Below are positions 1,463-19,650 of a stretch of 19,650 nucleotides of DNA, in pieces. The notes below the pieces were generated by a model. The model was given only the letters and a program-made list of their open reading frames with translations, searched no databases and was not told where the DNA came from. Each line of letters starts with the position of its first letter. The first letter of the stretch is position 1. Source of the DNA: a plasmid; sequence record CP068400.1, one strand, 5' to 3'. The position numbers were made by a program, and so were the translations under genes.

Positions 1463-2183
<721 letters not shown>

Positions 2184-2295
2184 TACGCCTATTTTTATAG
2201 GTTAATGTCATGATAATAATGGTTTCTTAGACGTCAGGTGGCACTTTTCGGGGAAATGTGCGCGGAACCCCTATTTGTTTATTTTTCTAAATACA

Positions 2296-2324
2296 TTCAA
2301 ATATGTATCCGCTCATGAGACAAT
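2296..2324 (+). promoter_or_regulatory. bla P3-type promoter (-35 TTCAAA, 17-bp spacer, -10 GACAAT)
   Basis: TTCAAA at 2296-2301 and GACAAT at 2319-2324 upstream of bla. This matches the classical TEM promoter arrangement. Confidence 0.7.
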
Positions 2325-2353
2325 AACCCTGATAAATGCTTCAATAATATTGA

Positions 2354-3226
<873 letters not shown>

Positions 3227-3335
3227 CTGTCAGACCAAGTTTACTCATATATACTTTAGATTGATTTAAAACTTCATTTTTAATTTAAAAGGATCTAGGT
3301 GAAGATCCTTTTTGATAATCTCATGACCAAAATCC

Positions 3336-3373
3336 CTTAACGTGAGTTTTCGTTCCACTGAGCGTCAGACCCC
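3336..3373. repeat. Tn3-family 38-bp terminal inverted repeat (bla-proximal end)
   Basis: CTTAACGTGAGTTTTCGTTCCACTGAGCGTCAGACCCC is the exact reverse complement of the repeat at 18074..18111. Confidence 0.95.
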
Positions 3374-3378
3374 TGGGA
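3374..3378. repeat. 5-bp target site duplication TGGGA (copy 1)
   Basis: TGGGA sits immediately outside the repeat at 3336..3373, and an identical TGGGA sits at 18069..18073 outside the other repeat. Confidence 0.85.
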
Positions 3379-4196
3379 ATCCGATCATGCAGCCGCCTCT
3401 TATGGCCCCGTGGCTTATCGGTCACGTTGAGAACGGCGTGCCTGCCTGGTCAGTCTGGATTGGCGACAGCCAAAGCGAGGCCATACAGCGCCAGCTGCTG
3501 CGTAATCCATCAACAGAGTTTCACAACCAGCGCCCCGGAGTGACAGGGTTTAATGCGAGTGGCCACCCGGTTTATTTATGCGAGAAACACCCATCGACCC
3601 CACTCAATTGGGACTGGGACAGGGATGCCCCGACAGTAGGCACAGTGCGGTTTTATTGCCCTGAATGCGAGCCGAAGGCACGCCTTCTACCGCTCGCCAT
3701 TCCACGCTCCCCCATGCAGTTTATGACAGCTCAGGAAGCGGCAGAGATACACGCCACAGTGGAGGATAAAGCAGACACCGCAGCCATCTGCGCCGATTGC
3801 CACCGGGCACCGCTGCGAATTGCCAGAGACCGATCAGGCTTTGTTACTGCGTCATGCCCTTGCTGCAATGCCAGCGCTACCTCCTCCGGCAATAATGTCT
3901 CACGCAAGTGGATTGACCCGGAGCCAGTCCAGCCGCGCTATTTCGGCGTCTACCGGGCTGCATACAACGATTTCCCATTGAGCGGTAGCGGTGCAGCTGC
4001 GCTGCAATTGGCGTCCACTTTACCCCTAACGCTGGAAAGGGTGCCGCAGCTCCTGTTTAACCGCTTACGGGCCTGCATTCTGGCTGCGCTGGGCGAATGG
4101 GAGTATCTGGACGGGCTCATGATCGACACCGAACGTGGCGACGGGCCGGAACTTCTCGCCCTGCTGGCACAGCTACGGGCGGCAGATTTGTCGTGA
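3379..4196 (+). pseudogene. 3' part (~272 codons) of a backbone gene for a multi-zinc-ribbon protein, interrupted by the Tn3-family insertion
   Basis: The reading frame NPIMQPPLMAPWLIGHVENG... continues in-frame from 17677..18073 once the transposon and one TGGGA copy are removed. It contains CxxC pairs (FYCPECEP, CADCHRAP, SCPCCNAS). Stop codon at 4194-4196. Confidence 0.75.
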
Positions 4197-4233
4197 CAAC
4201 ACACTGGGGCCTCACAACAAAAAGAGGCATCCC

Positions 4234-6984: not shown

Positions 6985-7014
6985 CGGTAGGGGCGTGCTG
7001 GCACGCAAACAACA

Positions 7015-7036
7015 CGGGGCCGCATGGCCCCTTTTT
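7015..7036. terminator. GC hairpin (GGGGCC-GCAT-GGCCCC) plus T-run; terminator for the 916-aa gene, probably bidirectional
   Basis: Perfect 6-bp GC stem followed by TTTTT on the plus strand, placed between convergent genes. Confidence 0.6.
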
Positions 7037-7037
7037 G

Positions 7038-7271
7038 CTATTCCTCGCCTTCGACGGCCTCAAACTCTTTCAGCAGCCGCTCCTCACGGAGCCAGCCCGT
7101 CAGCGTAGAGGATCCAGCCTCAACAACGTTATGCACATTGATGATGGCGTATCGACCAAACTCCCGATAGGAGGGAGAATTTGCCTTGTTAACGATAAGC
7201 GACTGACCACTTTTTTTCAGGTGGCGACTGAGGCGGGCAATGGCGGCACGCTCGGAAACGATGGCTTTCAT
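7038..7271 (-). CDS. Small hypothetical protein (77 aa), possible DNA-binding regulator
   Basis: MKAIVSERAAIARLSRHLKKSGQSL...; the GATTTTGTGTA repeat cluster lies immediately upstream. Weak resemblance to Phd/YefM- or AbrB-like N-termini, not secure. Confidence 0.5.
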   Translation of the reverse strand: MKAIVSERAAIARLSRHLKKSGQSLIVNKANSPSYREFGRYAIINVHNVVEAGSSTLTGWLREERLLKEFEAVEGEE

Positions 7272-7284
7272 GTTGGCAACCTCG

Positions 7285-7330
7285 ATTTGTGTAGATGTGA
7301 TTTTGTGTATATGTGATTTTGTGTAGATGG
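7285..7330. repeat. Three direct copies of GATTT(T)GTGTA (plus TGTGTAGATG x2) in the promoter region of the 77-aa gene; candidate operator
   Basis: gatttgtgtag, gattttgtgtat and gattttgtgtag occur at 13-16-bp spacing directly upstream of the start at 7271. Confidence 0.55.
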
Positions 7331-7362
7331 GATTCTATATGAAAATTCTATTTGGTCAAGCC

Positions 7363-7391
7363 AAAAAAAGGCCCTAAACGGGCCCTTTTTT
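7363..7391. terminator. Bidirectional intrinsic terminator (A7-GGCCC-TAAAC-GGGCC-T6)
   Basis: AAAAAAAGGCCCTAAACGGGCCCTTTTTT. The stop codon of the 7390..7557 ORF abuts the hairpin. Confidence 0.7.
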
Positions 7392-7557
7392 ATGCTCTCG
7401 GCGGCGTAGGGTAGCGCCAGTGCCATGTTGGCGCAGCCATTATCCGGCGCATCCTCTCGCGTGCTGCGGCGCGGATCCCTGCGTGCATCCTGCGCCTTTT
7501 CTTGGCGTCATGGGGAGCCATAACGCGCGAGGGGATCACCAGATTGGACTCAATCAT
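7390..7557 (-). CDS. Small basic Arg-rich hypothetical protein (55 aa), distal gene of the overlapping operon
   Basis: ATG at 7557 overlaps the upstream stop by 8 nt (ATGATTGA). The ORF ends at the terminator. Composition only; could be non-coding. Confidence 0.35.
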   Translation of the reverse strand: MIESNLVIPSRVMAPHDAKKRRRMHAGIRAAARERMRRIMAAPTWHWRYPTPPRA

Positions 7558-7918
7558 ATTCAGGTTTGCCCTCCTGCTTAACCGGATCGCGTAACTGGTG
7601 CTCCCGGTAGTTATCGCCCTGTTCCTGCCTCGCTTCATCCTCAGGTAAGAGGTTTAACGCAACAAGGTGCTGGAGTTCGGCATGGCGTTGACGCATATCA
7701 GCGGAGTCAGCCAGCCACTCACGGCGGGCCTTTGCCAGCCCCTCAGCCTCTTTGAGTAAAGCCGCGTCGTCATGAATAGCAGGGGAGGAATACCCCTCGT
7801 TACGCAGAACGGTGCGAAGATGTGCCAGCTGCATGACGTGATCAGAAGTGCGCTCACCCGCAGGCAAGCGCAGCGCAGACAGACAGGCCAGCAATACGGC
7901 CCGGCTGTTTATTTCCAT
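7550..7918 (-). CDS. Hypothetical protein (122 aa)
   Basis: Overlaps the upstream gene by 10 nt; no recognisable motif. Confidence 0.5.
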
Positions 7919-8514
7919 CCCTGAGCGCTCCAGTCGATACCCTGTACAGCTGGAGAGAGCGGCTCCTCCGTCAGCTGCTGGCGAACGGCTGCGATACCGG
8001 GGGCACGGGCAGCGTCTGGAAGGCCACGAGAGGCAGAAAGAGCCTCGCTCAGCTCAACAATCTGCCCACTTGAAACGCCAGCGCTCTCACACTCGCGCAG
8101 CAGCTGCTGATCGGCAATCTGCTGCTGCCGGGCCAGATGGATTTGCTCAACCGACAGGTTGCGGGTGATCGTCATATCCGGGACGGACTGCACAGGGGAA
8201 CCGCTCATTGCCTGCGCCAGCACATCGCCAGCGGTGGATTTGGTCATTGGCTCAGTGGAGAATCGGCGCATAACGCCAGCAATTCGCCCCTCGATCTCCT
8301 CCTGAGAAACGCCAGCAGCCTCACCAGCTGCAACCATATCTTTGAGCATCCTCTGATGATGCTCCGGCACGCCCAGCTCAACACAGCTTTTCAGCGCTAA
8401 ATCCAGCGACTGACGCGCCAGAGGTTGACCGGAAGCCACAGACAGCGCTTTAGTCAGCGTCACAGGGCCCTGCGCATCACGCAGCAGCTCAAGAAGTTTT
8501 TGGAAGTTACCCAT
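7909..8514 (-). CDS. Hypothetical protein (201 aa; [20 protein letters not shown]...)
   Basis: ATG at 8514 overlaps the stop of the upstream gene as ATGGGTAA. The longer ORF-track start (8613) is probably an over-extension. Confidence 0.55.
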
Positions 8515-9142
8515 TAGCGCGATCCCCCTGGTAATTTTTAAGCGCCAGAACCATACCCTGATTTTGCAGAAGCAGCCCCAGACGACGATCCAGCGTAACC
8601 GAAGCCGCGCCATTGCTTACTTTCGCGCCAGCCATCGCAGCCAGATCCATGGACTCACGCAGCAGAGTGCTCACGTAGGCCAGATGGGCGCTCAGATACG
8701 CATCCTCAGCCGCACGGTCTACGTTTGCATTGAGCATATCGATCTGGTGCTGGCAGGCTGACAGCTCGCTGCGGGTGGCTGCTGCCACCTGCTGCGCCGC
8801 TACCAGTTCGTTTTGCACCTCAGGCAGAAGGGCCGGAGCCATACCACACTCAGGGCGAACCGGTTCGCCAGAACGTAGGCAGGCTTTACCCTCCTCGATC
8901 AGCTCATTCAGATTCGCCAGCTGGGACTCCAAAGAGGAAACCTGCCCATTTTCAATCTCAAGGCGCAGGCGAAGCCCGGTAGCGGCGATCTCCTGCTCGC
9001 TGACCTTATCCAGCAGACGCAGCATGTGTGACCGGAGAGTGCTCAGGTCGCCTAATTTAGGCCCGGAGACCGTCAGGCTCTCCAGCCGGGTGGAAATTTG
9101 GTCGAGTACACGATCAACGTGTTTTTCGCTTTCTTTGCTCAT
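8507..9142 (-). CDS. Hypothetical coiled-coil protein (211 aa), first gene of the operon divergent from the serine recombinase
   Basis: [23 protein letters not shown]... is heptad-rich. AAAGGG Shine-Dalgarno upstream. No Walker motif. Confidence 0.6.
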
Positions 9143-9269
9143 TCGGTATGCCCTTTCTCGTTATAGCCAGCGGAATGCTGACCCTGACAGTTTGCCGTCA
9201 CGACCAGAGCGGTAGGGGGCGTGCCGTTGGCCCGCAAAGGTGACTTTTTGGGTACACCTCAAAAAAGCA

Positions 9270-9325
9270 GTGATTAATGCGTCTTATAGATTGATTTTTT
9301 AACTTAAAAGACGCAATATCTAAAA
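9270..9325. promoter_or_regulatory. Candidate recombinase crossover/res site or divergent promoter-operator (imperfect inverted repeat AATGCGTCTTA ... AAAAGACGCAAT around an AT-rich centre)
   Basis: Inverted repeat at 9276-9286 and 9307-9318, directly upstream of the serine recombinase gene. Confidence 0.3.
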
Positions 9326-9364
9326 ACGCACTACAGAAAACACCCCATAGCGCGGGAGCTAACG

Positions 9365-9991
9365 ATGAATTGCATGATTTACATGAGGGCCAGCACTGAG
9401 ACACAGGACGCCAGCCGCGCAGAGGATGAGCTCAAAACCTTTGCCGCAGCTAATGGCCTGACGATCTGCGGCTGGTATCGGGAGAATATCTCCGGCACGC
9501 AGCTGGAGCGCCCGCAGCTCAATAAACTGCTGCACGACGCCGGGCCGGGATTTGTCCTGCTGGTTGAAAAGCTCGACCGCCTGAGCCGCCTCACCCGTTC
9601 AGAGTGGGAGCAGTTGAAAGAACGGATCAGAGCCAAACGGCTGCGCATCGTCTGCTGCGACATCCCCACGACGCTGGCGGTATTGCAGGGAGAACAGCCG
9701 ACCGGGGCGGGCGGTTTCGACGTTCGCAACGTGGTACTCGATGCGCTCAACTCGATGCTGCTCGATATTGCCGCAGCATGGGCCCGCGACGATTACGAGA
9801 CACGCCGGAAACGTCAGGCGCAGGGAATCCAAAAGGCAGTAGAGGCCGGGAAATATAAGGGGAAACAGCCCAACACGGCACTGCATAAGAAGATTTTGAA
9901 ATACGCAGCCGCAGGACATAAAACGGGGGAGATCGCCAGACTGGCGAACTGCTCACGCTCCACGGTGCTGCGAGTAACGCGAGAGCAGTAG
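9365..9991 (+). CDS. Serine recombinase/resolvase family protein (208 aa) of the backbone
   Basis: N-terminal catalytic domain IYMRASTETQDA with the Ser nucleophile. C-terminal HTH (GEIARLANCSRSTVLRV). GGGAG Shine-Dalgarno 8 nt before ATG 9365. Confidence 0.85.
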   Translation: MNCMIYMRASTETQDASRAEDELKTFAAANGLTICGWYRENISGTQLERPQLNKLLHDAGPGFVLLVEKLDRLSRLTRSEWEQLKERIRAKRLRIVCCDIPTTLAVLQGEQPTGAGGFDVRNVVLDALNSMLLDIAAAWARDDYETRRKRQAQGIQKAVEAGKYKGKQPNTALHKKILKYAAAGHKTGEIARLANCSRSTVLRVTREQ

Positions 9992-10036
9992 AAAAGATTT
10001 GGCCCCGTTGCGTTGGAGCGCAGCAGGGCCAGAGGC

Positions 10037-10074
10037 GGCGCGGATCAGGTGGCCACCGTAACCGCGCCTTTGTC
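10037..10074 (+). terminator. Hairpin GGCGCGG-(loop containing palindrome GGTGGCCACC)-CCGCGCC plus TTTGTC; weak terminator after the recombinase gene
   Basis: 7-bp GC stem with an 18-nt loop and a short T-run. Confidence 0.4.
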
Positions 10075-10100
10075 AGAACCAACCCAATGGAACCAACATT

Positions 10101-10295
10101 ATGATTATTGCATCACAGCGTCATACGGCGCAAACCTTCCCCGGACTCAGCATTGAGCATGGGCAGATCTACCAGCACGGAAAACCTCGCAGTGTAGCGA
10201 TGAACGGGCGCGGCATTCATCAAGTAAGCCTCAGAACTACAGAGGGGCGGGTGCTGACCCTGCCCGTCTGCCGACTGTTCGAGTGGCAGGCATAA
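10101..10295 (+). CDS. Possible small protein (64 aa); doubtful
   Basis: ORF with no clear Shine-Dalgarno; followed by a GGGGCCCC-containing palindrome at 10297..10322. Confidence 0.2.
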   Translation: MIIASQRHTAQTFPGLSIEHGQIYQHGKPRSVAMNGRGIHQVSLRTTEGRVLTLPVCRLFEWQA

Positions 10296-10356
10296 CAACC
10301 GGGGCCCCTGCGGGGGCCCTATATCGTAATCAATATGGTGTAATGAATTACATACT

Positions 10357-10713
10357 ATGAAAATCAATATACCCGCAGCGCTCGCGCTACTGCTGACCAC
10401 CGCGCCGCTATACGCTAAACCGCTCTCCCTGCTCCACTGGTGCAGCGACGGCACCGCGATCCACCTCAGAGAGGACAACGGGCGGCTAACGATAACTTGG
10501 CGCGGCGCTTCCTTCCCGGTTGATAAGATACAGACCGGAAATCTGACAGTGGACATGACCGGAAGCACGCCAAACCAGAGCACGGTCATGCTCCTGGCTG
10601 CTTTTAACGACACTCCCACCCCAACAACGACCATCACCGCAAACGTGGTAGGCCGGGGAATGATGAGCGCCACCTGCCGCCCGGACACTGGCGCAAAACA
10701 TATCGACCTGTAA
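10357..10713 (+). CDS. Small secreted/periplasmic hypothetical protein (118 aa) with Sec signal peptide
   Basis: MKINIPAALALLLTTAPLYA|KP has an n-region, h-region and AxA-like cleavage site. Thr/Pro-rich stretch TPTPTTTIT. No Shine-Dalgarno seen. Confidence 0.5.
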   Translation: MKINIPAALALLLTTAPLYAKPLSLLHWCSDGTAIHLREDNGRLTITWRGASFPVDKIQTGNLTVDMTGSTPNQSTVMLLAAFNDTPTPTTTITANVVGRGMMSATCRPDTGAKHIDL

Positions 10714-10720
10714 CCGCCTC

Positions 10721-10750
10721 AGCGCCTCTCTGCGGGGCGCTTCTCTTTTT
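10721..10750 (+). terminator. Intrinsic terminator (AGCGCC-loop-GGCGCT + TTCTCTTTTT)
   Basis: 6-bp stem followed by a T-rich tract 8 nt after the stop of the 10357..10713 gene. Confidence 0.65.
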
Positions 10751-10903
10751 GTCGTGGTAACGCATTGCCCCGCCTCGTTTAACAGCGTCGCGGCTGGCAG
10801 GCTGAGCCAGTGGCAGGCCATCGGTATGGCGGCAGCTGCGCTGCCACACAAAGCAGTCGTGATGCCACCATGCAGATCCAGAGCAGCAGCAGAGGCAGCA
10901 CCC

Positions 10904-11359
10904 ATGAAACCAACACCACAACAGAAAGCCGCCGCACGCCAGATGCGGAGAGATCACCCCGATATGAGCGTGCGCCAGATCGCCGCAAAGCTCGGCATCA
11001 ACAGCGGAACCGTCAGCAAATGGCTCCGCCAGCCTGAGGCAGAAACACCGCTCAGCATCGAGGGCCTGATCGCCCAGACGCAGCAGAACTTTGAGAACCT
11101 GCCACCCAGCGAGGCCGAAAAGCTCAGCCAGCTGCGCGATGAGCTCCGGGCAAGGCAGCAAGCCATCATTAAGCGGCAGATCAGCCTACTGGAGGGACTA
11201 CAAGCGGAGGGGATGACCGCGCTCAAAAAGAAAGACCTACCCACAGCCCGCGCAGCAGCCAGCCTGATCTCTGCATTCACAAAGGCATTCAGCCATGAGG
11301 CCATGGTCTACCAGATCATTGACCCCGCCGCTGTCATGAAATCAGCGCTCAAAGAGTAA
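10904..11359 (+). CDS. HTH DNA-binding protein (151 aa) with leucine-zipper-like C-terminus (IS3 OrfA-like or small-terminase-like fold); candidate iteron/ori-binding or regulatory protein
   Basis: MKPTPQQKAAARQMRRDHPDMSVRQIAAKLGINSGTVSKWLRQ followed by heptad-rich LSQLRDELRARQQAIIKRQISLLEGL. GAGGC Shine-Dalgarno 7 nt upstream. The longer ORF-track start (10754) is not favoured. Confidence 0.6.
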   Translation: MKPTPQQKAAARQMRRDHPDMSVRQIAAKLGINSGTVSKWLRQPEAETPLSIEGLIAQTQQNFENLPPSEAEKLSQLRDELRARQQAIIKRQISLLEGLQAEGMTALKKKDLPTARAAASLISAFTKAFSHEAMVYQIIDPAAVMKSALKE

Positions 11360-11529
11360 TCATTTTTTATTTTTAGGCAGCAGGCCCGGCAGGCGCTCGT
11401 CTGGCTGGGTTTTGCAGTGTCCGTGCGAAAGCACGGCCCATACCGTTCCCCCCTCAAACCATCCACCAAAGCAGAACCGCGTCACGCAGCTGCACCCTAA
11501 CGGGATGCACTTTGCGCCGCTATGCGGAT

Positions 11530-11618
11530 GTAACCTCATACGTAACCACTGTAACCACACGTAACCTTTTATGTAACCAGAATAAAATCATATAAATCAA
11601 TAACGTAACCTTGTAACC
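11530..11618 (+). repeat. Left iteron block of the origin: 7 direct copies of the hexamer GTAACC (consensus a/c,c/t-GTAACC) at roughly helical-turn spacing
   Basis: GTAACC at 11530, 11542, 11551, 11561, 11573, 11605 and 11613. Confidence 0.8.
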
Positions 11619-11692
11619 TTTTTTATAATAAATACTTTTGAATAAAAAAATAAATACATAGATATATATATCAACTAGCAATTAGCAAAAAA
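11619..11692. other. AT-rich DNA-unwinding element of the origin (about 90 percent A+T)
   Basis: ttttttataataaatacttttgaataaaaaaataaatacatagatatatatatcaactagcaattagcaaaaaaa lies between the two opposed iteron blocks. Confidence 0.7.
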
Positions 11693-11694
11693 AT

Positions 11695-11796
11695 GGTTAC
11701 GAGGTTACACATGGGTTAAGGCCACGAATGGCGGGGCTTTAGGCGTAACCATGGGGGAGGTTACGCATGGTTACACGTAACCTTTAATTTGGTTAC
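11695..11796. repeat. Right iteron block: 6 copies of GGTTAC/GGTTAA (inverted relative to the left block) plus 2 GTAACC, including the inverted pair GGTTAC-AC-GTAACC at 11769..11782
   Basis: GGTTAC at 11695, 11703, 11759, 11769 and 11791; GGTTAA at 11714; GTAACC at 11745 and 11777. Confidence 0.8.
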
Positions 11797-11802
11797 AGGT
11801 AC

Positions 11803-11822
11803 AAAAAAGCCCCTTTCGGGGC
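11803..11822 (-). terminator. Intrinsic terminator of the 518-aa gene (GCCCC-TTTC-GGGGC followed by T6 on the minus strand)
   Basis: AAAAAAGCCCCTTTCGGGGC on the plus strand; on the minus strand the hairpin is followed by TTTTTT, 6 nt after the stop at 11828. Confidence 0.75.
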
Positions 11823-11827
11823 TCTCG

Positions 11828-13384
11828 TTAATCGTTGGCGGCTCGCATCGTCATGCGGCTTGCTACCGTTTCCGGCAGCGGAGGGATAAGCGTACCCTTC
11901 ACAAACCCTGTCTTAGTTCGGTGAGTGGCAGGCTTACCGATAATGGCTGTACGGTCACGAATCAGCGTATTGAACTCATGCCCGTTCGTTTTCCCTGTAT
12001 AGGCACTGACGAACTCACGCCACCATTGAGCGACACATTTAAGCACAATGCCCTTTTCAGCCGATTCATACGGCAATCCGTGGCGCTTCTGCGCAATATC
12101 GGAATGCGCAAAGCTGTAGAACTCATCACAAATTTCGCCGTAATGGTCGGTGATAACGCCGGATGACTTGGCAAGGCCATACTTTTTGTGAAATTCATTC
12201 AGATACTCAGCAGCCTGCTTTGAAGCCAGCGCGGGGCCAGCCTGCTGGTAAGCCTCAATGCGGCTATTCAGACCCTTTGCAATGGCATCCTGTACCCGTG
12301 AGGCATAGTAACCGGGATCGGCCTGAAACAACGGACGGTCATTAACCGGGCCAGACTGGGGCTGGATATGTGAGAATCGGCGGGCGATCTGCTCATCAAT
12401 ACCGGATTCACTGATAAGACCAGGAATAGGATCAGCTGAGGTGTAAATCTTGGTGTAAAGCGGGACTGTCTGGGCTATCTGGTGCTTGGTTGATACGGTG
12501 ATCGCACTCTCCAGAACAAAGGATTTTTTCGTGATGCGCTCCGGCTCGTTAATCGCCAGAATCAGCGCCCGGACAAACTCGCTTGCCGTCCTGCCACTGG
12601 CTGACCCCTTCACGATGGAGTCCAACTCCTGCTCGTTAACTTCCACGACCAAACCCAGCTTTGAGAACGCCCCATTCTTACCGAACAGCAGCCCCTTACC
12701 GAAGTCAGAGACCGCCTGCAAAAACAGGTAAGCGTTTTTACGGTCTGGTGCGAAACGGGCTGCGGCGATCAGGTCGATAAGCTCAGGGAACTGCGGGAAA
12801 TGCTCGCGCCAGTCGTCATTGATGGCCTTGTCCAATTTTGTGACCGGGTAAGGGACATGCGCCAGAGTGATGCGTGCTTTTCCTTCCTCGTCCAGTGTGA
12901 CAGATGCGCTATCGGTGAACATATCAACCGCAACATGAAGGGCAACGAACTGCCGATATGTGCGGATGCAGTCACCAACAATGCCAGAGATAGCTTTTCG
13001 CAGGTCTGTCAGTCGTTCAGAGGCGGTTTTCTTGGTCAGCGCTAATGCTACGGCCTGCCCTGCTGCCTCTTTGCCCTTTTCGGTGTCATGGAAGAAGCCG
13101 CCACAGCTGGATTCAATCAGGCGGAAATCGGACGCTCCAAAGCGCTTAATATGTGCGGCCTTGTCCAGGTGGATGTATTGCTTTTTCTCCGGGAACCAGA
13201 GAGACCGGGAAAGGCAGTAAGCTATTGCAGGGAGGTTAATCCCCAACTCCTGCGCTTTCTCGCTGCGCTCCATTTCCGCCAATTGAAATAAGTCAGCGCA
13301 TAAATGCTCACGGACGGCGGCAATGATTTTGCCGAATAGCTGCGGGGGGAGCTCGATAAAAGAGGCCGTGATGTTATCTGCCAT
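11828..13384 (-). CDS. Large hypothetical protein (518 aa) flanked by the iteron origin (3' side) and DnaA boxes/leader elements (5' side); candidate replication initiator, no P-loop
   Basis: Long uninterrupted ORF MADNITASFIELPPQLFGKIIAAV... with an AAGGA Shine-Dalgarno. No GxxxxGK[ST] Walker A, no HUH motif, no family recognised by eye. The role is inferred from position only. Confidence 0.7.
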   Translation of the reverse strand: MADNITASFIELPPQLFGKIIAAVREHLCADLFQLAEMERSEKAQELGINLPAIAYCLSRSLWFPEKKQYIHLDKAAHIKRFGASDFRLIESSCGGFFHDTEKGKEAAGQAVALALTKKTASERLTDLRKAISGIVGDCIRTYRQFVALHVAVDMFTDSASVTLDEEGKARITLAHVPYPVTKLDKAINDDWREHFPQFPELIDLIAAARFAPDRKNAYLFLQAVSDFGKGLLFGKNGAFSKLGLVVEVNEQELDSIVKGSASGRTASEFVRALILAINEPERITKKSFVLESAITVSTKHQIAQTVPLYTKIYTSADPIPGLISESGIDEQIARRFSHIQPQSGPVNDRPLFQADPGYYASRVQDAIAKGLNSRIEAYQQAGPALASKQAAEYLNEFHKKYGLAKSSGVITDHYGEICDEFYSFAHSDIAQKRHGLPYESAEKGIVLKCVAQWWREFVSAYTGKTNGHEFNTLIRDRTAIIGKPATHRTKTGFVKGTLIPPLPETVASRMTMRAAND

Positions 13385-13404
13385 TTACTTTAGTCCTTGT
13401 ATGC

Positions 13405-13427
13405 AAAAAAGCAGCGCCAAAAGGCGC
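13405..13427 (-). terminator. Terminator-like hairpin (GCGCC-TTTT-GGCGC + T6 on the minus strand) about 20 nt upstream of the 518-aa start codon; candidate attenuator
   Basis: On the minus strand the hairpin is followed by TTTTTT, then the Shine-Dalgarno and ATG. Its position inside the leader suggests attenuation. Confidence 0.35.
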
Positions 13428-13434
13428 GTAACAC

Positions 13435-13463
13435 TTGATTGCTCAGGAACCAATGGCTATCAT
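13435..13463 (+). promoter_or_regulatory. Near-consensus sigma70 promoter (TTGATT, 17-bp spacer, TATCAT) reading rightward, away from and antisense to the 518-aa gene leader
   Basis: -35 at 13435-13440 and -10 at 13458-13463 with exactly 17-bp spacing. Confidence 0.45.
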
Positions 13464-13469
13464 CACTTT

Positions 13470-13560
13470 TGCCCGGTGATGATTTGTAACCAGCCCATGT
13501 GGTTCCAACGCAAATCAAAACTATTTCGCAGAGGCCCCAGTTACCAGCTGGGGCCTTTTG
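13470..13560 (+). ncRNA. Candidate ~90-nt countertranscript (antisense RNA) from the promoter at 13435..13463 to the terminator at 13532..13560
   Basis: The promoter is followed about 70 nt later by an 8-bp GC stem (AGGCCCCA/TGGGGCCT) and TTTT. No convincing ORF with a Shine-Dalgarno in the interval. Confidence 0.35.
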
Positions 13561-13670
13561 CATTTCAGGGATAAGCATAGCGATCCAAAACGGCGTCGGC
13601 AAGCGATGATCAGGCGTCGATCTTCATCTTTTTTGCGTCACCCCTCCCCTCCTTACGTCATGCCTGCCGT

Positions 13671-13709
13671 TGTGGATAAGTTGTTGTTGAAAAGGTGATT
13701 TTATCCACA
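13671..13709. promoter_or_regulatory. Two perfect consensus DnaA boxes (TTATCCACA) in inverted orientation, 21 bp apart
   Basis: tgtggataa at 13671-13679 and ttatccaca at 13701-13709, both 9/9 matches; a third degenerate copy (ctgtggac) lies nearby. Confidence 0.65.
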
Positions 13710-13834
13710 CTTTATGGCTCCGCTGTGGACTGTCTTTGTGTCGAGCCAACGGCTCGGCCCTTACCGCTAATGTGTCACATTGCATTACGTAGTGTATGAC
13801 GTAATAATGCACTGAAACACAAACGGGGGACGCC

Positions 13835-14353
13835 ATGAAAGAGAACAAAACAGCCGCCCTGAGCCTCAGGCTCCCGGCAGATCTCATGCAGTTACTTGAT
13901 GAGCGAGCCAGTGCTGAACACCTCACCCGCACAGATATAGCGCTGGCTGCGCTCCGGGAGTACCTCGGCGTCGCTACAGCTCCGGCAGCGTCTGACAAGC
14001 TCGATAGGGTGATCGAACTACTGGAAACCATTGCTGGGAATGCCCCACAGCGTAAGACAGCCGCACCACAGCGTCAGACAGTGCAACACGCTGAAGCAAC
14101 ACAACGTAACACGCCGTCAGGCAATGAAATACAGCGTAATACGGCGCGAGCCGCCGATCCTCGTTTTCATGCCGTAGACCCTGAGGCCGATGCCATGATA
14201 GTGCGCATGAGTGCTGAGGGGGCCGGGCTGGCTGACATTACGAATGCGCTCAATGCGCTGGGCTTTACCAGTGCGACCGGGCAGGAGTGGACACGCAGCC
14301 GCCTGCGGGACTATCGGCATAAGCTGCGGGATAGTGGACTGCTCAATGGCTAA
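13835..14353 (+). CDS. Ribbon-helix-helix (CopG/Arc/MetJ-like) DNA-binding protein, 172 aa
   Basis: The N-terminal LSLRLPADLMQLLDERASAEHLTRTDIALAALREYL fits the RHH beta-alpha-alpha pattern. The gene overlaps the downstream gene by 8 nt. Confidence 0.7.
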   Translation: MKENKTAALSLRLPADLMQLLDERASAEHLTRTDIALAALREYLGVATAPAASDKLDRVIELLETIAGNAPQRKTAAPQRQTVQHAEATQRNTPSGNEIQRNTARAADPRFHAVDPEADAMIVRMSAEGAGLADITNALNALGFTSATGQEWTRSRLRDYRHKLRDSGLLNG

Positions 14354-14807
14354 GAATAACTACGGCATTAATGGCTCACCTAACAGCCATATAGCCCACC
14401 CAGCAGGGCTCCCATGTTTTGGCTCTTTACCGGAGTTTGTTTCAAGAGGGGATGTAATACCTGCCGGGGATATATTTCTGCGCGTGGGGAATCATAGAGG
14501 CCCTAATAGCGGCTTTGGCGTGCGTCATATATGGGCAGAGCATGAAAAGGAACTGGTGCGGCTCGGTTATCATACCGTGAATGATGTGGCCCGTTTCGTG
14601 TGTGACGTTATTCAGCCAGGTGCTGGAGTGTATTGTGAGTTCAACCATCCGGGTGGGAAGCACAGGCCGAAGGTTTTACGTTCAGCGCTTGGGATCGTCA
14701 TACTGGAGCCAAAAGAGGCTGACTGGGCTCAGAGCGGATGGATTTACAGCGTAGTAACCGCGTATGAGACTCACAGGACGCAAGGCACGTTGTTAGGCAG
14801 GTTATAA
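14346..14807 (+). CDS. Hypothetical protein (153 aa) translationally coupled to the RHH gene
   Basis: The ATG at 14346 overlaps the RHH stop as ATGGCTAA. MAKNNYGINGSPNSHIAHPAG...HIWAEHEKE... has no recognised family. Confidence 0.6.
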   Translation: MAKNNYGINGSPNSHIAHPAGLPCFGSLPEFVSRGDVIPAGDIFLRVGNHRGPNSGFGVRHIWAEHEKELVRLGYHTVNDVARFVCDVIQPGAGVYCEFNHPGGKHRPKVLRSALGIVILEPKEADWAQSGWIYSVVTAYETHRTQGTLLGRL

Positions 14808-14812
14808 GTTAT

Positions 14813-14843
14813 AAAAAGCAGAAGGGCGCAATAAGCGCCCTTC
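14813..14843 (-). terminator. Intrinsic terminator oriented for leftward (minus-strand) transcripts: GAAGGGCGC-AATAA-GCGCCCTTC with T-run on the minus strand
   Basis: 9-bp GC-rich stem. The A5 on the plus strand gives a U-run for the minus-strand RNA. It lies about 290 nt downstream of the 143-aa gene stop. Confidence 0.6.
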
Positions 14844-14852
14844 GTAATGCTT

Positions 14853-14919
14853 GGTAGCCGCAGCCAATCTTTAGCTCGTGGGTTCAGATACCAACCTGAT
14901 TATTCAGGTTGAGCTACCG
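14853..14919. repeat. Nested inverted repeats forming a compound stem-loop (GGTAGC...GCTACC outer arms; inner perfect hairpin AACCTGA-TTAT-TCAGGTT)
   Basis: Seen directly in sequence, in the long 3' non-coding region of the primase-side operon. Confidence 0.5.
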
Positions 14920-14998
14920 ACAGGAGACCAGCCTCCTGACTGCCCAGCGCAAAGGGCCAATTACTGGTTGATACCCTCTGCGAATGCTCTTGCAGTAC

Positions 14999-15018
14999 AA
15001 CAATAGTAGACTATTGTT
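14999..15018. repeat. Perfect 9-bp inverted repeat AACAATAGT-AG-ACTATTGTT
   Basis: Seen directly in sequence. Confidence 0.6.
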
Positions 15019-15135
15019 ACGGGACATGCAACCGTCATTATCCGCGCCAGACGTGACGGGGAGCGGCTTTGCGGAGATATTTACTCTTTTTTGAAGTCTA
15101 TCGGTATGGGCGGCGGTGCCGCAGTTTGTGCCAAT

Positions 15136-15567
15136 TCACGCCATACAGCTGCTAATAAACTCAACGATCTGGCGCTGCTCATTCTCGCTGATTGTTTGCC
15201 ACTCAGGAGCCACGTCAGGCAACCCACGATAAGCAGTTTGCGTCAGCCCCATAATTCGTGCGAACAGCTGGCAGGTGAATGTTTCCCGTTCTATCTGGCA
15301 GTGGCTGGCGTATACCTTGCCCGTTTTGTCTTTGCGCAGGCTGCGGGCCACATCAGCGTAATAGGCTGGGGTGGCCCATTCGTGTCCGCGTATGGAATGC
15401 CCCACTATCATCATCACACCGCCGCGCATAATGCGCTTACCGAACGCGATCACAGGGCCCTCAGGCCCTGCTGATTTGCCGCCTTCCCGGTGCCACTGTG
15501 CAAGCGATAATTTGATGATGTGCGTGAGCTCCGCTGTGGTATCTCTGCGGATTTGTTCGTGGTTCAT
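15136..15567 (-). CDS. Hypothetical protein (143 aa)
   Basis: MNHEQIRRDTTAEL... The start ATG overlaps the upstream stop as ATGA. No family recognised. Confidence 0.55.
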   Translation of the reverse strand: MNHEQIRRDTTAELTHIIKLSLAQWHREGGKSAGPEGPVIAFGKRIMRGGVMMIVGHSIRGHEWATPAYYADVARSLRKDKTGKVYASHCQIERETFTCQLFARIMGLTQTAYRGLPDVAPEWQTISENEQRQIVEFISSCMA

Positions 15568-15851
15568 TGAACTCTCCCAGCGTGCGCCGCTGCTGCGCTT
15601 GCTTCAATGGCGTCAGCCATGGCCCCAAGACGCTCGATTTGAGTCGCCAGACCGTTAGCGCCATGCAGCTGCTGGAGCGTAACCATTTGAGAACCGGCTA
15701 CCGCGATCCATTGTGCCAGAACAGCAGGGTTAGCGACGGCGTAACCTTCTCCCAGCATTGCGTCGAGGTCAGTCACAGCGCGGGCCACAAACAGCGTGGC
15801 GGTCTTGCTGGACTCGTTAAACAGCATCGTTTCAAAGTCCTGATCGGTCAT
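15564..15851 (-). CDS. Small hypothetical protein (95 aa), Ala-rich
   Basis: MTDQDFETMLFNESSKTATLF... A strong AGGAG Shine-Dalgarno lies 7 nt upstream, immediately after the terminator hairpin. Confidence 0.55.
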   Translation of the reverse strand: MTDQDFETMLFNESSKTATLFVARAVTDLDAMLGEGYAVANPAVLAQWIAVAGSQMVTLQQLHGANGLATQIERLGAMADAIEASAAAAHAGRVQ

Positions 15852-15865
15852 GATTTACTCCTGGC

Positions 15866-15899
15866 ATAAAAAAGCCGCTTCCCCAATACGGGGAGCGGC
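15866..15899 (-). terminator. Intrinsic terminator between the primase gene and the 95-aa gene (GCCGCTCCCC-GTATT-GGGGAAGCGGC + T6), probably a partial terminator allowing read-through
   Basis: 10-11-bp stem followed by TTTTTT on the minus strand. The downstream gene's Shine-Dalgarno starts right after the T-run, with no room for a promoter. Confidence 0.65.
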
Positions 15900-15909
15900 G
15901 TGTGAATAT

Positions 15910-17127
15910 TCAAATATTGTGACTGGCATCCGATGAGCTCGGCCCGGACAGAGTACCGTCACGACTTTGGCGGGCTTCACGGAACAATGAGCGGAGGAGG
16001 GCGCGGGAATTGTCCACGCCATGACGGGCCAGCAGGTCAAATGGATCGTTGCCGTCCTCAAACAGGCAACGAGAAAGCGGCACGGAATAAACTGGAGGAT
16101 AGCGACGAGTGTTAGCCTCCGCGATACTTTGCGCTATCTCCTCGCCTACGCCCACGTCGCCCACGATGTAGATCGGGCTGTGGTCGTAAACAATGCGCAG
16201 CTCATCAATGACTGCGGCAAAATTATTGCAGCTCATTGCACAGAACACAGGCAATGCTCCGCCCATAGCGAGAGACAGGGCCAGCCCAGAGGTAAAACCC
16301 TCGCAGATAAACAGAGGTGAACCGTGACGGGCCTTGTCGATGTTGAACGGGTAGAAGCTCCCGCCACGCTGGGCACCCTTGAGGCCGCGTTTTGCTCCGG
16401 TGAATGACAGCTCAGTTTCTGGGCTAGGGCGACCGCAAACGATCTCGACGGTGCTCATGCCCAGCTGCAACTCGTCATCAAAGCGATACAAAGGGATAAT
16501 CATCGAGTGATTCCAGAAAATTCCCTTGCTGGATGCGCCTTTTTCAAAGGTGCGCCAGTTTGCGGCTTTTACGTCATCCGGGAGCGGTAGGGGCAGTGCG
16601 GCTGCACTGCATTTGCCCTGCCAGTATGGCGACAGCGCGGGATCGAGACTGGCCTTGTTATAAATCTGCGTAGCCTGCCGGACGGCAATCTGGCGCTGCC
16701 GTTCGTCAGCCTCCAGTGCTACCCGGTGGGCCTCCTCCATTTCCCGGCGCTGTGCTTCACGTCTGGCGAGGTCTGCGGCGGTCGGTTGGTAGGAGCCAAA
16801 GCGCCCAGAGTGGATCTCCGGGATAAGACCAGAATCACGCAGGAACGCGCCAGCCATGGAGAACGGGCTGAGTTTTTCGAGAGACTGAGGGCGGAGAGCG
16901 GCGCGAATAAGTCCCGCGTCAGCCGGGGCTGCATTAACGCCTGATGCGCTCCAGCGCTCGCAGATGGTCTGCGCATCGCCCAGCCTCAGGATGTTAGCCC
17001 AGCAGGCGATCTGCCGTACCTGCTGCACCCACCCAAGATAATCAGATGCAGGCAGCACGCGTGCCAGCGCCTCATCAAACACGCCGGGCCACAACAGGTA
17101 TTCGTCTTTGCTCTCGCTCATTCTCAT
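15910..17127 (-). CDS. Toprim-domain DNA primase-like protein (~405 aa), satellite-phage (P4 alpha-type) or plasmid primase-like
   Basis: C-terminal Toprim signature LFICEGFTSGLALS ... IYIVGDVGVGEEIAQSIA (invariant Glu and acidic cluster). The start ATG at 17127 overlaps the AlpA stop as ATGA. No helicase P-loop. Confidence 0.7.
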   Translation of the reverse strand: MRMSESKDEYLLWPGVFDEALARVLPASDYLGWVQQVRQIACWANILRLGDAQTICERWSASGVNAAPADAGLIRAALRPQSLEKLSPFSMAGAFLRDSGLIPEIHSGRFGSYQPTAADLARREAQRREMEEAHRVALEADERQRQIAVRQATQIYNKASLDPALSPYWQGKCSAAALPLPLPDDVKAANWRTFEKGASSKGIFWNHSMIIPLYRFDDELQLGMSTVEIVCGRPSPETELSFTGAKRGLKGAQRGGSFYPFNIDKARHGSPLFICEGFTSGLALSLAMGGALPVFCAMSCNNFAAVIDELRIVYDHSPIYIVGDVGVGEEIAQSIAEANTRRYPPVYSVPLSRCLFEDGNDPFDLLARHGVDNSRALLRSLFREARQSRDGTLSGPSSSDASHNI

Positions 17128-17309
17128 CTCTCCGGGCGTCTTTGCGCCTTGATTACCTTCTTTAGCTCCGGGGTAAGCCACCAGTAATGGCCTCCCGGAT
17201 ATGTCCTGCCGTCTGGGGTAGGTACTTTTCCCGCAGCGATCAGGTTGTCCAGGTGGCGAGCGCTGATCCTCAGTGATTCAGCGAGCGCCTTTCGATAAAT
17301 TTTTCTCAA
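17124..17309 (-). CDS. AlpA/Vis/excisionase-family HTH regulator (61 aa)
   Basis: LAESLRISARHLDNLIAAGKVPTPDG....WWLTPELKKVI matches the prophage AlpA-type pattern (HTH followed by conserved P.P and W). Confidence 0.55.
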   Translation of the reverse strand: MRKIYRKALAESLRISARHLDNLIAAGKVPTPDGRTYPGGHYWWLTPELKKVIKAQRRPER

Positions 17310-17676
17310 AGGGTTGGTCTCAACTTCAAAAGGATTTGGCCCCGAAGGGCCGGAGGTACTTTCATGCCAAAAGCATTTTGCAGGTCATAAGGGCTTATGC
17401 GGTGATGCGGGTATTTCTACCCCGGAGAGAGCCGCACTGATCTGCGCCTTTCGCTCTCACGCCCCGTAATGGGTGGAGAGCGCACCCATCTAACCCCTCG
17501 TGGCTGGGGTGTCCTTCAACAAACTGCCGTTGAAATTGGTAAGCGGTGCCCTTGTGATTGCTCCGCCGTGATCAATATAGAAAAAATTGCGGAATTGTGT
17601 CAAGATAAAAAACACGATAAAACCAGCAATGGCGCGGCTTACGGCGTATATGACGTAATGAAAGGCGGTTATAAAA

Positions 17677-18073
17677 ATGGATTCTCCAACACCCGAAAAA
17701 CTCCAGCTTGTCGGAGCCGTCGAGGCTTACCCGGATTTGATGCCCGGCATTCTGTTTGTCACCTGCCCGGATAAAGCAAAATCATGTGTCAGTGTCAGCA
17801 CCTGCCAGCGTCTTCACGACGAAACGATAAGTCGTAAGGCAGACCCTGAGGCTTGCGCCAGACCATGCTCACGATGCGCTACGGGAGTGATTTTGTGGCG
17901 CGGTGAATCTTCACGGCTACCTCCCGTTAATATTGAGCATTGCCCTCGATGCGGGAGAACAGGGAGACTTGTTGGGAAGAAGAACGGCAGCAAGGCTACA
18001 CCATGGAGCGTGTGTTGCGTGTCTTGCTGGAATCGCGTCGCTGAGAACAAAAAGGGCGTTGGAGCCCGTGGGA
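17677..18073 (+). pseudogene. 5' part (132 codons) of the backbone zinc-ribbon protein gene interrupted by the Tn3-family insertion
   Basis: MDSPTPEKLQLVGA...CPRCGRTGRLVGKKNGSKATPWSVCCVSCWNRV... runs in-frame into the inverted repeat, where a transposon-encoded tail follows. The frame continues at 3379 after excising the transposon and one TGGGA copy. Confidence 0.75.
18069..18073. repeat. 5-bp target site duplication TGGGA (copy 2)
   Basis: Identical to 3374..3378 and directly abutting the inverted repeat at 18074..18111. Confidence 0.85.
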
Positions 18074-18111
18074 GGGGTCTGACGCTCAGTGGAACGAAAA
18101 CTCACGTTAAG
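18074..18111. repeat. Tn3-family 38-bp terminal inverted repeat (tnpA-proximal end)
   Basis: GGGGTCTGACGCTCAGTGGAACGAAAACTCACGTTAAG; the tnpA stop codon lies inside it. Confidence 0.95.
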
Positions 18112-19650
18112 CAACGTTTTCTGCCTCTGACGCCTCTTTTAATGGTCTCAGATGTCCTTTGGTCACCAGTTCTGCCAGCGTGAAGGAATAATGGCCGAGC
18201 ATATTGATATGTCCGTGGCAAAGCGGGGAGAGGCGTGCGATATCTTCATCATTCAGTGTTTCACCCTGCGCCCGGAGATGATCCAGGGCTGCCTGCATAT
18301 AAATAGTGTTCCATAACACGACGGCGTTAGTGACCAGCCCCAGTGTGCCCAGTTGATCTTCCTGACCGTCGGTATATCGTTTTCTTATCTCACCTTTTTG
18401 ACCGTGACAGATGGCTCTGGCAACGGCATGGCGACTTTCTCCCCGATTAAGCTGGGTCAGAATGCGCCGGCGGTAATCTTCATCATCAATATAATTAAGC
18501 AGATACAGCGTTTTGTTGATGCGCCCCACTTCAATGATTGCCTGAGTCAGTCCGGAAGGACGTTCACTTTTCAGCAATGAACGGACCAGCACTGAAACCT
18601 GTACTTTGCCCAGCTTCAGGGAGCCAGCGGTCCGGATCATTTCGTCCCACTGAAGGACTATTTTTCGGGGATCTGATTGCCCTCTGGCAATATCATTCAG
18701 CACGCCATAGTCGGCATCATGGTCCATTCGCCAGAAAACCGAAGCACCGGCATCAGCCAGGCGTGGAGAAAACTGGTATCCCAGCAGCCAGAAAAGGCCA
18801 AAGACAAGTTCGCTGGCACCTGCTGTATCGGTCATAATTTCGGTTGGATTCAGCCCGGTCTCCTGTTCCAGAAGACCTTCCAGCACAAAGATAGAGTCCC
18901 TCAGCGTCCCCGGTATAACGATGCCATGAAAGCCGGAATACTGATCGGACACAAAGTTGTACCAGGTGATCCCTCTGTTATTACCAAAGTATTTGCGGTT
19001 CGGTCCGGCATTGATTGTTCTGACTGGCGTAACAAAGCGCATTCCATCTGCAGATGCCACTTCTCCTCCACCCCATATCTGTGCCAGTGGCAGCGTTGCC
19101 TGAAAATCAACCAGTCTGGCATTAGCGCTGGTGATAGTTTCAGCCCGCAGATAGTTCGCTTTTGTCCAGTTCAGCCGGTGTCGGGTCAGTGCAGGAACAT
19201 TTGATCTGATCAGTGGTTCCAGACCGATATTGCAGGCTTCAGCCATCAGCACGGCGCTGATGCTGACGGGCAGATCATCAACTCTGGCACTGGCTTCACT
19301 GGCATGGAAAAACTCATCAGCAAATCCGGTATGGGCGTTAATTTCGAGCAGCAACTCCGTTAAATCCACCGGAGGGAGTAGATCACTGATCATTTTGCTC
19401 AGTCGTTTCAGACTGTCCGGCTCATCAAGACTGGCGAGGGGAGAAATTGTCAACCGGGGCTTCGGGCCAGAAACATCGAGTTCGACAGCCTCATTTTCGC
19501 AAAGACGTGCAGCAACCTGTCTGTAACGACTATCAAGCTGATGACCCAGAGATTTTATTGCTTCCTGCGGGTCTGTCGGGTGCCCCAAAGAACGATAAAC
19601 CTTAATCCGGTTTGCCTGCCAGTCAGCACCCTGTAGTAATCTTGCACGAG
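18107..19650 (-). CDS. tnpA: Tn3-family transposase TnpA, 3' part (C-terminal 514 codons); joined in-frame to 1..1462 across the circular junction (total 1001 aa)
   Basis: Minus-strand translation ...ARLLQGADWQANRIKVYRSLGHPTDPQEAIKSLGHQLDSRYRQ...EASEAENVA* is recognised as the Tn3 TnpA C-terminus. It has no start codon inside the window. The ORF-track M at 19588 is an internal TTG. Confidence 0.95.
   Translation of the reverse strand, partial: RARLLQGADWQANRIKVYRSLGHPTDPQEAIKSLGHQLDSRYRQVAARLCENEAVELDVSGPKPRLTISPLASLDEPDSLKRLSKMISDLLPPVDLTELLLEINAHTGFADEFFHASEASARVDDLPVSISAVLMAEACNIGLEPLIRSNVPALTRHRLNWTKANYLRAETITSANARLVDFQATLPLAQIWGGGEVASADGMRFVTPVRTINAGPNRKYFGNNRGITWYNFVSDQYSGFHGIVIPGTLRDSIFVLEGLLEQETGLNPTEIMTDTAGASELVFGLFWLLGYQFSPRLADAGASVFWRMDHDADYGVLNDIARGQSDPRKIVLQWDEMIRTAGSLKLGKVQVSVLVRSLLKSERPSGLTQAIIEVGRINKTLYLLNYIDDEDYRRRILTQLNRGESRHAVARAICHGQKGEIRKRYTDGQEDQLGTLGLVTNAVVLWNTIYMQAALDHLRAQGETLNDEDIARLSPLCHGHINMLGHYSFTLAELVTKGHLRPLKEASEAENVA

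Follow-up and report, generated by a model that had tools for sequence, protein, structure and literature searches.

A putative cis-antisense-RNA copy-control cassette in the leader of a replication-slot gene of small enterobacterial plasmids

The window analyzed here is a 19,650-nucleotide stretch of plasmid DNA (sequence record CP068400.1); our subject is the leader of a minus-strand gene within it that encodes a 518-residue protein (the 518-aa gene) and occupies the slot in which sibling plasmids carry DUF927, DUF5906, VapE, or primase-helicase genes. With a confidence somewhat above even, we read this leader as a copy-control cassette of the cis-antisense-RNA kind. A promoter within the leader that points away from the 518-aa gene (P_anti) and the intrinsic terminator behind it are best read as the two ends of a cis-encoded countertranscript of ~90 nt; judged from the sequence, such an RNA is very likely. 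This reading follows from the pattern of conservation among homologous leaders, from the bias of substitutions toward loops, and from an analogous, non-homologous cassette in sibling plasmids; both transcripts, their start sites, the sign of the regulation, and its mechanism are what we infer. The coordinates of the features are collected in Table 1.

Results

Nine homologous leaders

We assembled nine distinct leaders from plasmid records, one GTDB genome, contigs on which a homologue of the 518-aa protein is encoded, and a single contig from a metagenome. These leaders (type-1 in what follows) are 88–97% identical from the start codon to ~13640; the genes behind them belong to the 518-aa family (87%, 74%, and 44% amino acid identity; 44–87% among members) or are unrelated and of the DUF927 type, and in the DUF927-type plasmids the homology to the window ends 17 nt inside the open reading frame (ORF). 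All stems of the predicted countertranscript are invariant; the substitutions and 1-nt indels favor unpaired positions and are clustered at 13493–13509. Because the leaders differ by 1-nt indels, coding on either strand is ruled out; a plus-strand ORF of 83 codons (13323–13574), the frame of which is broken by such indels among the homologues, was rejected for this reason.

Few further homologues were found: one of 5426 complete Escherichia coli genomes matched, a profile search of GTDB with the ribbon-helix-helix (RHH) protein encoded nearby gave two loci, and a pattern scan of metagenomes gave six matches of which one was real (the other five, Ga03075xx contigs, have no BLAST similarity). 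The phage collection yielded no match, and IMG/VR yielded none by either the DNA pattern or the RHH protein. The diversity of the type-1 leaders is therefore too low for true covariation.

The putative countertranscript

P_anti has 9 of 12 consensus matches, and both of its hexamers are fixed in all nine leaders, with variation in the spacer at positions 13444, 13445, and 13452. A first-pass annotation of the window had called this promoter (TTGATT-17-TATCAT, 13435–13463), a plus-strand terminator at 13532–13560, and an RNA of ~90 nt between them; the two elements are present as described, and the RNA stands as the best reading of them. The terminator is AGGCCCCAG-UUACCAG-CUGGGGCCU (13532–13556), followed by UUUGCAUUU; among the homologues its stem is invariant and its loop is variable. 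Including this one, the window has three perfect hairpins with 9 bp or more, as compared with 0.77 expected in shuffled sequences. The consensus scan listed the minus-strand hairpin considered below and missed this terminator, in our reading because a G–T extension of the stem consumes the T-run.

The segment that would encode the RNA (13468–13565) is predicted to fold at −38.7 kcal/mol (z = −4.5), and none of 200 shuffled sequences folds equally well. Substitutions shun the predicted stems of the countertranscript (odds ratio 0.27, p = 0.015), and those in the sense leader are biased to unpaired positions as well (p = 0.005). The loop of stem-loop 1 has six different sequences among nine leaders that are otherwise nearly invariant. 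Variation focused on a loop in an otherwise frozen RNA is what would be expected of antisense copy-control RNAs whose recognition loops are lineage-specific; the variable part of stem-loop 1 is a candidate for the recognition or incompatibility determinant. A 3-bp helix in the minimum free energy (MFE) fold of the antisense RNA (13475–13477/13520–13522) is lost in relatives and was not retained. In Rfam, the putative RNA matched no family at the gathering score, and only unrelated weak matches appeared at E ≤ 10.

The promoter and leader of the 518-aa gene

P_rep, a candidate promoter for this gene, is located at 13602–13574; its hexamers are fixed in nine of nine leaders and its spacer is changed at six or more positions. 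The predicted start (~13566–13567) is a few bases past the stem of the antisense terminator, and from this position the complementarity of the countertranscript would extend over the leader's first ~93 nt, so that the overlap would be complete. The earlier supposition that the gene has a promoter farther upstream, near the DnaA boxes, thus gains a conserved candidate.

The RNAalifold consensus for the sense leader contains a long irregular hairpin. Only its 5' half is within the antisense target; its 3' half carries an anti-Shine-Dalgarno-like UUCC (13449–13446). Because the 3' half is upstream of the plus-strand start, this hairpin can form in minus-strand RNA alone, and as the consensus fold it supports a minus-strand transcript through the region. 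So does the closing of its internal loop in two lineages, by C–G in one and G–C in the other (manual reading). The 5' tail of the countertranscript (13471–13475) is complementary to the loop that caps the hairpin. The distance from the end of the antisense target to the ATG is 86 nt.

A 60-codon minus-strand ORF (13563–13389) spans the leader and resembles a coupled leader peptide; it is the only leader ORF with its end close to the ATG of the 518-aa gene, 5 nt short of it. A leader peptide of the R1 tap or IncB repY kind was nevertheless rejected: the start of the ORF is ACG in six of the nine homologues, and 1-nt indels break the frame.

Table 1. Features of the leader cassette and its surroundings (window coordinates).
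Feature	Position	Strand	Description or basis
P_anti, outward promoter	−35 TTGATT 13435–13440; 17-nt spacer; −10 TATCAT 13458–13463	+	Consensus scan
Putative countertranscript, ~92 nt	13471–13562	+	5' single-stranded tail, stem-loop 1 (~13480–13517), terminator stem-loop
Stem-loop 1, variable part	13493–13509	+	Apical loop, 3' arm of inner stem, internal loop; hot spot of variation
Countertranscript intrinsic terminator	13532–13565	+	9-bp GC-rich stem 13532–13540/13548–13556, 7-nt loop, U-rich tail
P_rep, candidate promoter of the 518-aa gene	−35 TTGCCG 13602–13597; 17 nt; −10 TATGCT 13579–13574	−	Conservation
Untranslated leader, ~183 nt (predicted)	13385–13567	−	Deduced from P_rep
Long irregular leader hairpin	13434–13519	−	RNAalifold consensus; cap is the inverted repeat AUCAUCAC/GUGAUGAU (13483–13459)
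Terminator-like hairpin	13404–13427	−	GCGCC-UUUU-GGCGC 13427–13414, UGC, U6 13410–13405
Shine-Dalgarno AAGGA and ATG of the 518-aa gene	13397–13393; 13384–13382	−	Read from the sequence
518-aa gene, replication-protein slot	11828–13384	−	PHROG 35045 'DNA primase', E = 8e-40
DnaA boxes, two perfect, inverted	TGTGGATAA 13671–13679; TTATCCACA 13701–13709	.	Candidate origin beside P_rep
Ribbon-helix-helix (CopG-like) gene	13835–14353	+	Weak RHH_1 match; CopG family annotation in relatives

An analogous cassette in sibling plasmids

Within the same plasmid family, a non-homologous cassette (type-2) substitutes for the segment 13385–13665; the slot genes of the plasmids that carry it are of the DUF5906, VapE, or primase-helicase kinds, or a 518-aa-family gene that is 72% identical. 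The type-2 cassette contains an outward near-consensus promoter (TTGAAA-17-TAGAAT; TTGAGT-17-TATAGT in more diverged members) followed by an RNA of ~100 nt with a strong terminator, and a promoter equivalent to P_rep is found at the matching place; the motif CGCTAT(G/T)CT is common to both types. Because the two cassettes have equivalent parts, a countertranscript in the leader appears to be a design feature of the family, and this analogue raises our confidence in the reading of type-1.

In the type-2 RNA the penultimate hairpin exists in compensatory variants (CAGAC/GUCUG, CAGAUAG/CUAUCUG, AGAAGG/CCUUCU, and GAGAAG/CUUCUC); RNAalifold identifies seven pairs with double-sided changes in the alignment, and in pYe4449-2 the terminator stem is wholly replaced. 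The type-2 Shine-Dalgarno sequence is sequestered in a conserved, covarying hairpin, which points toward translational control in the plasmid family.

The type-2 terminator (AAAAACCAGCTGCCCGGCTGGTTTTTTTT) is flanked by both an A-run and a T-run (L003, 3820–3858; also the loci L009, L017, L015, L019, L021, and L022), so it could also halt the sense (rep) transcript ~50–60 nt after its predicted start; it is a possible attenuation point of a different kind in the sibling cassette. One of these loci, L009, is a 15,070-bp contig (VAFL01000034.1) that is labeled 'MAG: Paracoccus denitrificans' and bears the enterobacterial plasmid backbone; its RHH protein is 95% identical to that of the window and its type-2 cassette matches that of a Serratia plasmid at 98.6% identity, and it is probably a mis-binned plasmid contig.

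The recombination breakpoints between plasmids (loci L001, L003, L015, and L017) are sharp, one at 13368 (the DUF927 plasmids, 17 nt inside the ORF) and one at 13665 (the DUF5906/VapE plasmids). Slot gene and leader cassette assort independently, and L015 combines a gene of the 518-aa family with a type-2 cassette.

The conservation of the type-1 block could also have its origin in the DNA itself, that is, GCGCC-4-GGCGC and ATCATCAC-9-GTGATGAT could be protein operators or parts of an origin or partition site, with the promoter and terminator motifs incidental or unrelated to the control of rep. The block adjoins perfect DnaA boxes and TTACGTCA-type repeats, the type-2 cassette has another palindrome (GCGTCATAAATGACGGC, without a U-run) just upstream of its outward promoter, and extreme conservation without covariation fits DNA-binding sites. 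We nevertheless judge this explanation distinctly unlikely, for fixed hexamers with free spacers and fixed stems with free loops are the pattern of promoters and RNA, the single change in the GCGCC hairpin (in the homologue L010) breaks the DNA palindrome and keeps a G–U pair in the RNA, and the preservation of pairing by compensatory changes in the type-2 hairpins is a signature of selection at the RNA level.

P_rep and P_anti are convergent, ~97 bp apart, and P_anti aims at the DnaA boxes ~200 bp away. The plus-strand transcript might accordingly serve the origin (activation or priming, loosely like ColE1 RNA II), or control might consist of the collision of convergent polymerases without any pairing of RNAs; in pIP501, convergent transcription influences the output of the antisense RNA (PMC5703833). 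We attach very little probability to either version: in both cassette types a strong terminator halts the RNA ~110 bp short of the DnaA boxes, and for these roles a structured RNA body with a variable loop would be needless.

The terminator-like hairpin and attenuation

The first-pass annotation had also noted a minus-strand hairpin with a U6 tract upstream of the Shine-Dalgarno sequence and ATG, which we find at 13427–13405, and had proposed attenuation as in pT181 and pIP501: binding of the antisense RNA would make this hairpin terminate transcription before the ribosome-binding site, an antiterminator forming otherwise. Several features agree with this proposal. The hairpin and its U6 are located past the antisense target and ahead of the ribosome-binding site and are kept in the nine leaders; they are unchanged in eight, and the C-to-U change in L010 retains its pair (G–U) in the minus-strand RNA alone. 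Also, the mechanism has to be indirect, the ribosome-binding site being outside the target, and a weak antiterminator can be drawn between UGCG (13530–13527, inside the target) and CGCG (13428–13425).

We folded the leader in three lengths, each beginning at the predicted start and running to the hairpin's end, through the U-run, or into the ORF, either free or with 13470–13562 unavailable (a mimic of bound antisense RNA). In the free leader the five hairpin pairs have probabilities of 0.93–1.0, and with the target blocked 0.98–1.0; in the positive control, the pT181 repC leader treated by the same procedure, the terminator rises from 0.08 to 0.97–1.0, and the MFE fold reproduces the known preemptor pairing. 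Equilibrium folding reveals no mutually exclusive antiterminator (preemptor) in the leader: the best one that can be forced, in which the long hairpin is extended at its base to take in the first nucleotides of the stem of the terminator, is 6.2 kcal/mol worse. Because the hairpin forms in both states whereas the pT181 terminator switches, a switch of the pT181/pIP501 type is absent at equilibrium. With only 5 bp and a gap of 3 nt before the U-run, the hairpin would by its architecture be a weak terminator; furthermore, the type-2 cassette has no such terminator and uses a hairpin that sequesters the Shine-Dalgarno sequence instead. These folds are equilibrium predictions, and a kinetic, co-transcriptional switch is conceivable. 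Attenuation of the kind proposed is thus, in our assessment, unlikely, although it merits more weight than the other alternatives.

An antiterminator drawn from the 5' end of the leader (CAAAAGGC with GCCUUUUG of the hairpin, 8 nt) was discarded; a match of this kind is expected about by chance in 460 nt (a rough estimate), and it would compete with a 9-bp GC stem. A scan for antiterminators with RNAduplex returned heavily gapped, uninformative duplexes alone.

The 518-aa gene

The identification of the 518-aa gene as a replication gene is positional and by weak homology: it draws on the PHROG match, on the equivalent genes found in the slot, and on the context of DnaA boxes, which the slot adjoins, and an RHH gene. 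The protein has no match in Pfam or NCBIfam, a permissive Pfam scan included; nothing was found among PDB sequences, BLASTP detects no similarity to the DUF927 and DUF5906 proteins, and the AlphaFold model (pLDDT 46.8) is too poor for a fold search. In the first-pass annotation, the arrangement would support a role of the protein as the rate-limiting replication factor, which it may be.

A mechanism and the points that weigh against it

In the mechanism that we propose, P_rep would make the mRNA of the 518-aa gene with its ~183-nt leader, and P_anti would make a structured RNA of ~92 nt that ends at the strong terminator, where the leader begins. The level of the countertranscript would track the copy number of the plasmid, and its pairing with the leader would lower the expression of the replication gene. 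With 86 nt between the target and the ATG, direct occlusion of the ribosome-binding site is impossible, so the effect must be indirect; coupling of the R1 type is unlikely because there is no conserved leader peptide. We suggest that pairing of the antisense RNA opens the long leader hairpin (13519–13434), that the 3' half of the hairpin with its UUCC is set free, and that the freed segment pairs with the ribosome-binding site, with less translation as the outcome. The predicted folds are consistent with these steps: when the target is blocked, the mean probability that the Shine-Dalgarno sequence is unpaired decreases from 0.40–0.92 to 0.22–0.41 in all nine variants, and in these folds the freed 3' half, including GUUCC (13450–13446), pairs with the Shine-Dalgarno region. 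A further contribution is likely from RNase III, which would cleave the ~90-bp duplex, and interference between the convergent promoters may add to the effect (cf. pIP501). The GC hairpin and U-run (13427–13405) would then be a leaky terminator, constitutive in its action, that holds read-through into the gene at a low level, and not a switch operated by the antisense RNA.

A number of observations weigh against this reading. Matches like P_anti are not above chance when taken alone (two observed in 4 kb, 3.0 expected), and the antisense terminator of L010 has an interrupted U-tract. The type-1 leaders are so similar that RNAalifold identifies no double-sided changes; without a double-sided compensatory pair, the structural evidence for type-1 is conservation, not covariation, and the high conservation could partly reflect DNA-level functions (operators, origin elements). 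The predicted effect on the Shine-Dalgarno sequence is modest, and the free-state values vary with the amount of downstream sequence that is folded. The role of the 518-aa protein in replication is suggested by position and by a PHROG match. Finally, both RNAs are predictions, made from sequence, conservation, and folding.

Discussion

Relation to known copy-control systems

In several respects the cassette resembles CopA/CopT of the IncFII plasmid R1: the host is enterobacterial, and R1 too has an antisense RNA of ~90 nt with two stem-loops, the second of which is the terminator, and with its promoter inside the rep leader (PMC5717011). The target is well upstream of the ribosome-binding site of rep, which makes control indirect, and a small repressor protein (CopB in R1) is found in the replicon (PMC5717011). 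Unlike R1, the cassette has no conserved equivalent of the tap leader peptide and no similarity to CopA in sequence or in Rfam; the regulated gene encodes a helicase/primase-slot protein, not RepA, and the RHH gene is divergent, not co-transcribed. The IncFII likeness seen in the first-pass annotation therefore holds for the predicted ~90-nt two-stem-loop RNA with its target upstream of the ribosome-binding site and fails for the leader peptide and Rfam homology.

With pT181, pIP501, and pAMbeta1 the cassette shares, at the level of sequence and conservation, a countertranscript with complementarity to the 5' region of the rep leader and, past the target but ahead of the ribosome-binding site, a terminator-like hairpin with a U-run; an RNA, a small repressor, and convergent promoters are combined in pIP501 too (PMC5703833). 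It differs from these systems in the lack of a preemptor, in the weak 5-bp stem, in the Gram-negative host, and in the absence of homology. The pairing of an RHH protein with a small antisense RNA recalls CopG and RNAII of pMV158/pLS1 (PMC4485353, PMC5717011), in which RNAII has an unpaired 5' tail and inhibits the translation of rep (PMC4485353, PMC5717011). However, pMV158 is a rolling-circle plasmid with copG and repB in one operon, whereas here the RHH gene is oriented divergently, 86 nt separate the target from the start codon, and the predicted RNA has about twice the length. We place the cassette outside the R1 and pMV158 families, since it lacks a leader peptide, homology, and an Rfam match.

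The RNAI systems of the IncB, IncI, and IncL/M plasmids, of which IncB had been named in the first-pass annotation, have a repY or repB leader peptide, an activator pseudoknot, and a single-hairpin RNA of ~70 nt; here there is no conserved leader ORF and the RNA would have two hairpins and ~92 nt, so we do not follow this comparison (no pseudoknot-specific search was made). ColE1 (RNAI/RNAII) primes replication with its sense transcript and does without a plasmid Rep protein, whereas here the sense transcript would leave the DnaA-box region and enter the 518-aa gene in the replication slot. ColE2 and ColE3 have an RNAI of ~100 nt, antisense to the 5' untranslated region of the mRNA that encodes a primase-type Rep, and inhibition of translation has been reported at a distance from the start codon; their sequence, Rep protein, and origin type are unrelated to the cassette described here.

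Implications

We propose that the cassette represents a family of antisense RNAs not described before, in a plasmid group that is itself uncharacterized; the principle of its control would be classical, that of the textbooks. We found no paper on this replicon, with pYe4449-2 and the DUF927 plasmids included in the search. If the antisense RNA is real, it would be a determinant of incompatibility and copy number for plasmids that have been little studied, and it would offer a handle for curing them or for manipulating their copy number; the hypervariable loop, which differs between lineages, could then be used as a typing marker. In the family as a whole, countertranscript cassettes of two non-homologous kinds and slot genes of at least four unrelated kinds are shuffled at sharp breakpoints, which makes it an example of modular replicon evolution.

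A more daring proposal, and one that we hold to be improbable, is that the ~220-bp block (P_rep, leader, and countertranscript) is a portable, gene-agnostic module that is found before at least three unrelated or diverged helicase/primase-slot genes and needs no gene-specific sequence; in its boldest version, the antisense RNA would enhance termination at the GC hairpin and U-run kinetically, without a preemptor helix. If true, this version would be antisense-driven attenuation in an enterobacterial plasmid; the examples that we found in the literature are Gram-positive plasmids.

The plasmid backbone and neighboring features

The backbone is the central part of the window (~3370–18073) and belongs to a family of enterobacterial plasmids of 13–15 kb that MOB-suite calls non-mobilizable and for which it reports no replicon type; the nearest relative is E. 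coli CP056414 (98–99% identity). Tn3/Tn4401-family sequence brackets this backbone (1–3369 and 18074–19650), with a DDE_Tnp_Tn3 transposase at 18107–19588, and the flanks match Tn4401 and KPC-2/KPC-3 plasmids with identities up to 100%. The window thus looks like a small cryptic plasmid that took up, or was captured by, Tn4401.

An interval of 21 bp separates the two perfect DnaA boxes, and a third, weaker copy (GCTGTGGAC) is found at 13722–13730; the boxes are kept in type-1 and type-2 plasmids alike; the region that contains them, between the divergent promoters of rep and the RHH gene, is the likely origin region. Repeats of the type TT(A/G)CGTCA occur upstream of P_rep at 13633 and 13653 (13633–13661), with copies that vary between lineages, and a palindrome of the same type (ATTACGTA...ATGACGTAAT) covers the putative promoter of the RHH gene (13783–13804); these repeats are candidates for operators of the RHH protein or for iterons. 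The RHH gene itself is located beyond the DnaA boxes, divergent from the 518-aa gene, and is possibly the protein arm of the control circuit. Downstream of it, directly after an ORF at 14211–14807, a perfect 9-bp GC-rich hairpin (GAAGGGCGC-TTATT-GCGCCCTTC, 14821–14843) with a T-run on the minus strand is likely a terminator between convergent units.

Two other ORFs of the window give phage-like gene content to a plasmid called non-mobilizable. The first, a 949-aa ORF (4135–6984, plus strand), has endolysin and tape-measure-like PHROG matches, and relatives annotate a 'lytic transglycosylase' in the backbone; the second, a 423-aa ORF (15910–17181, minus strand), has Toprim/primase-like matches.

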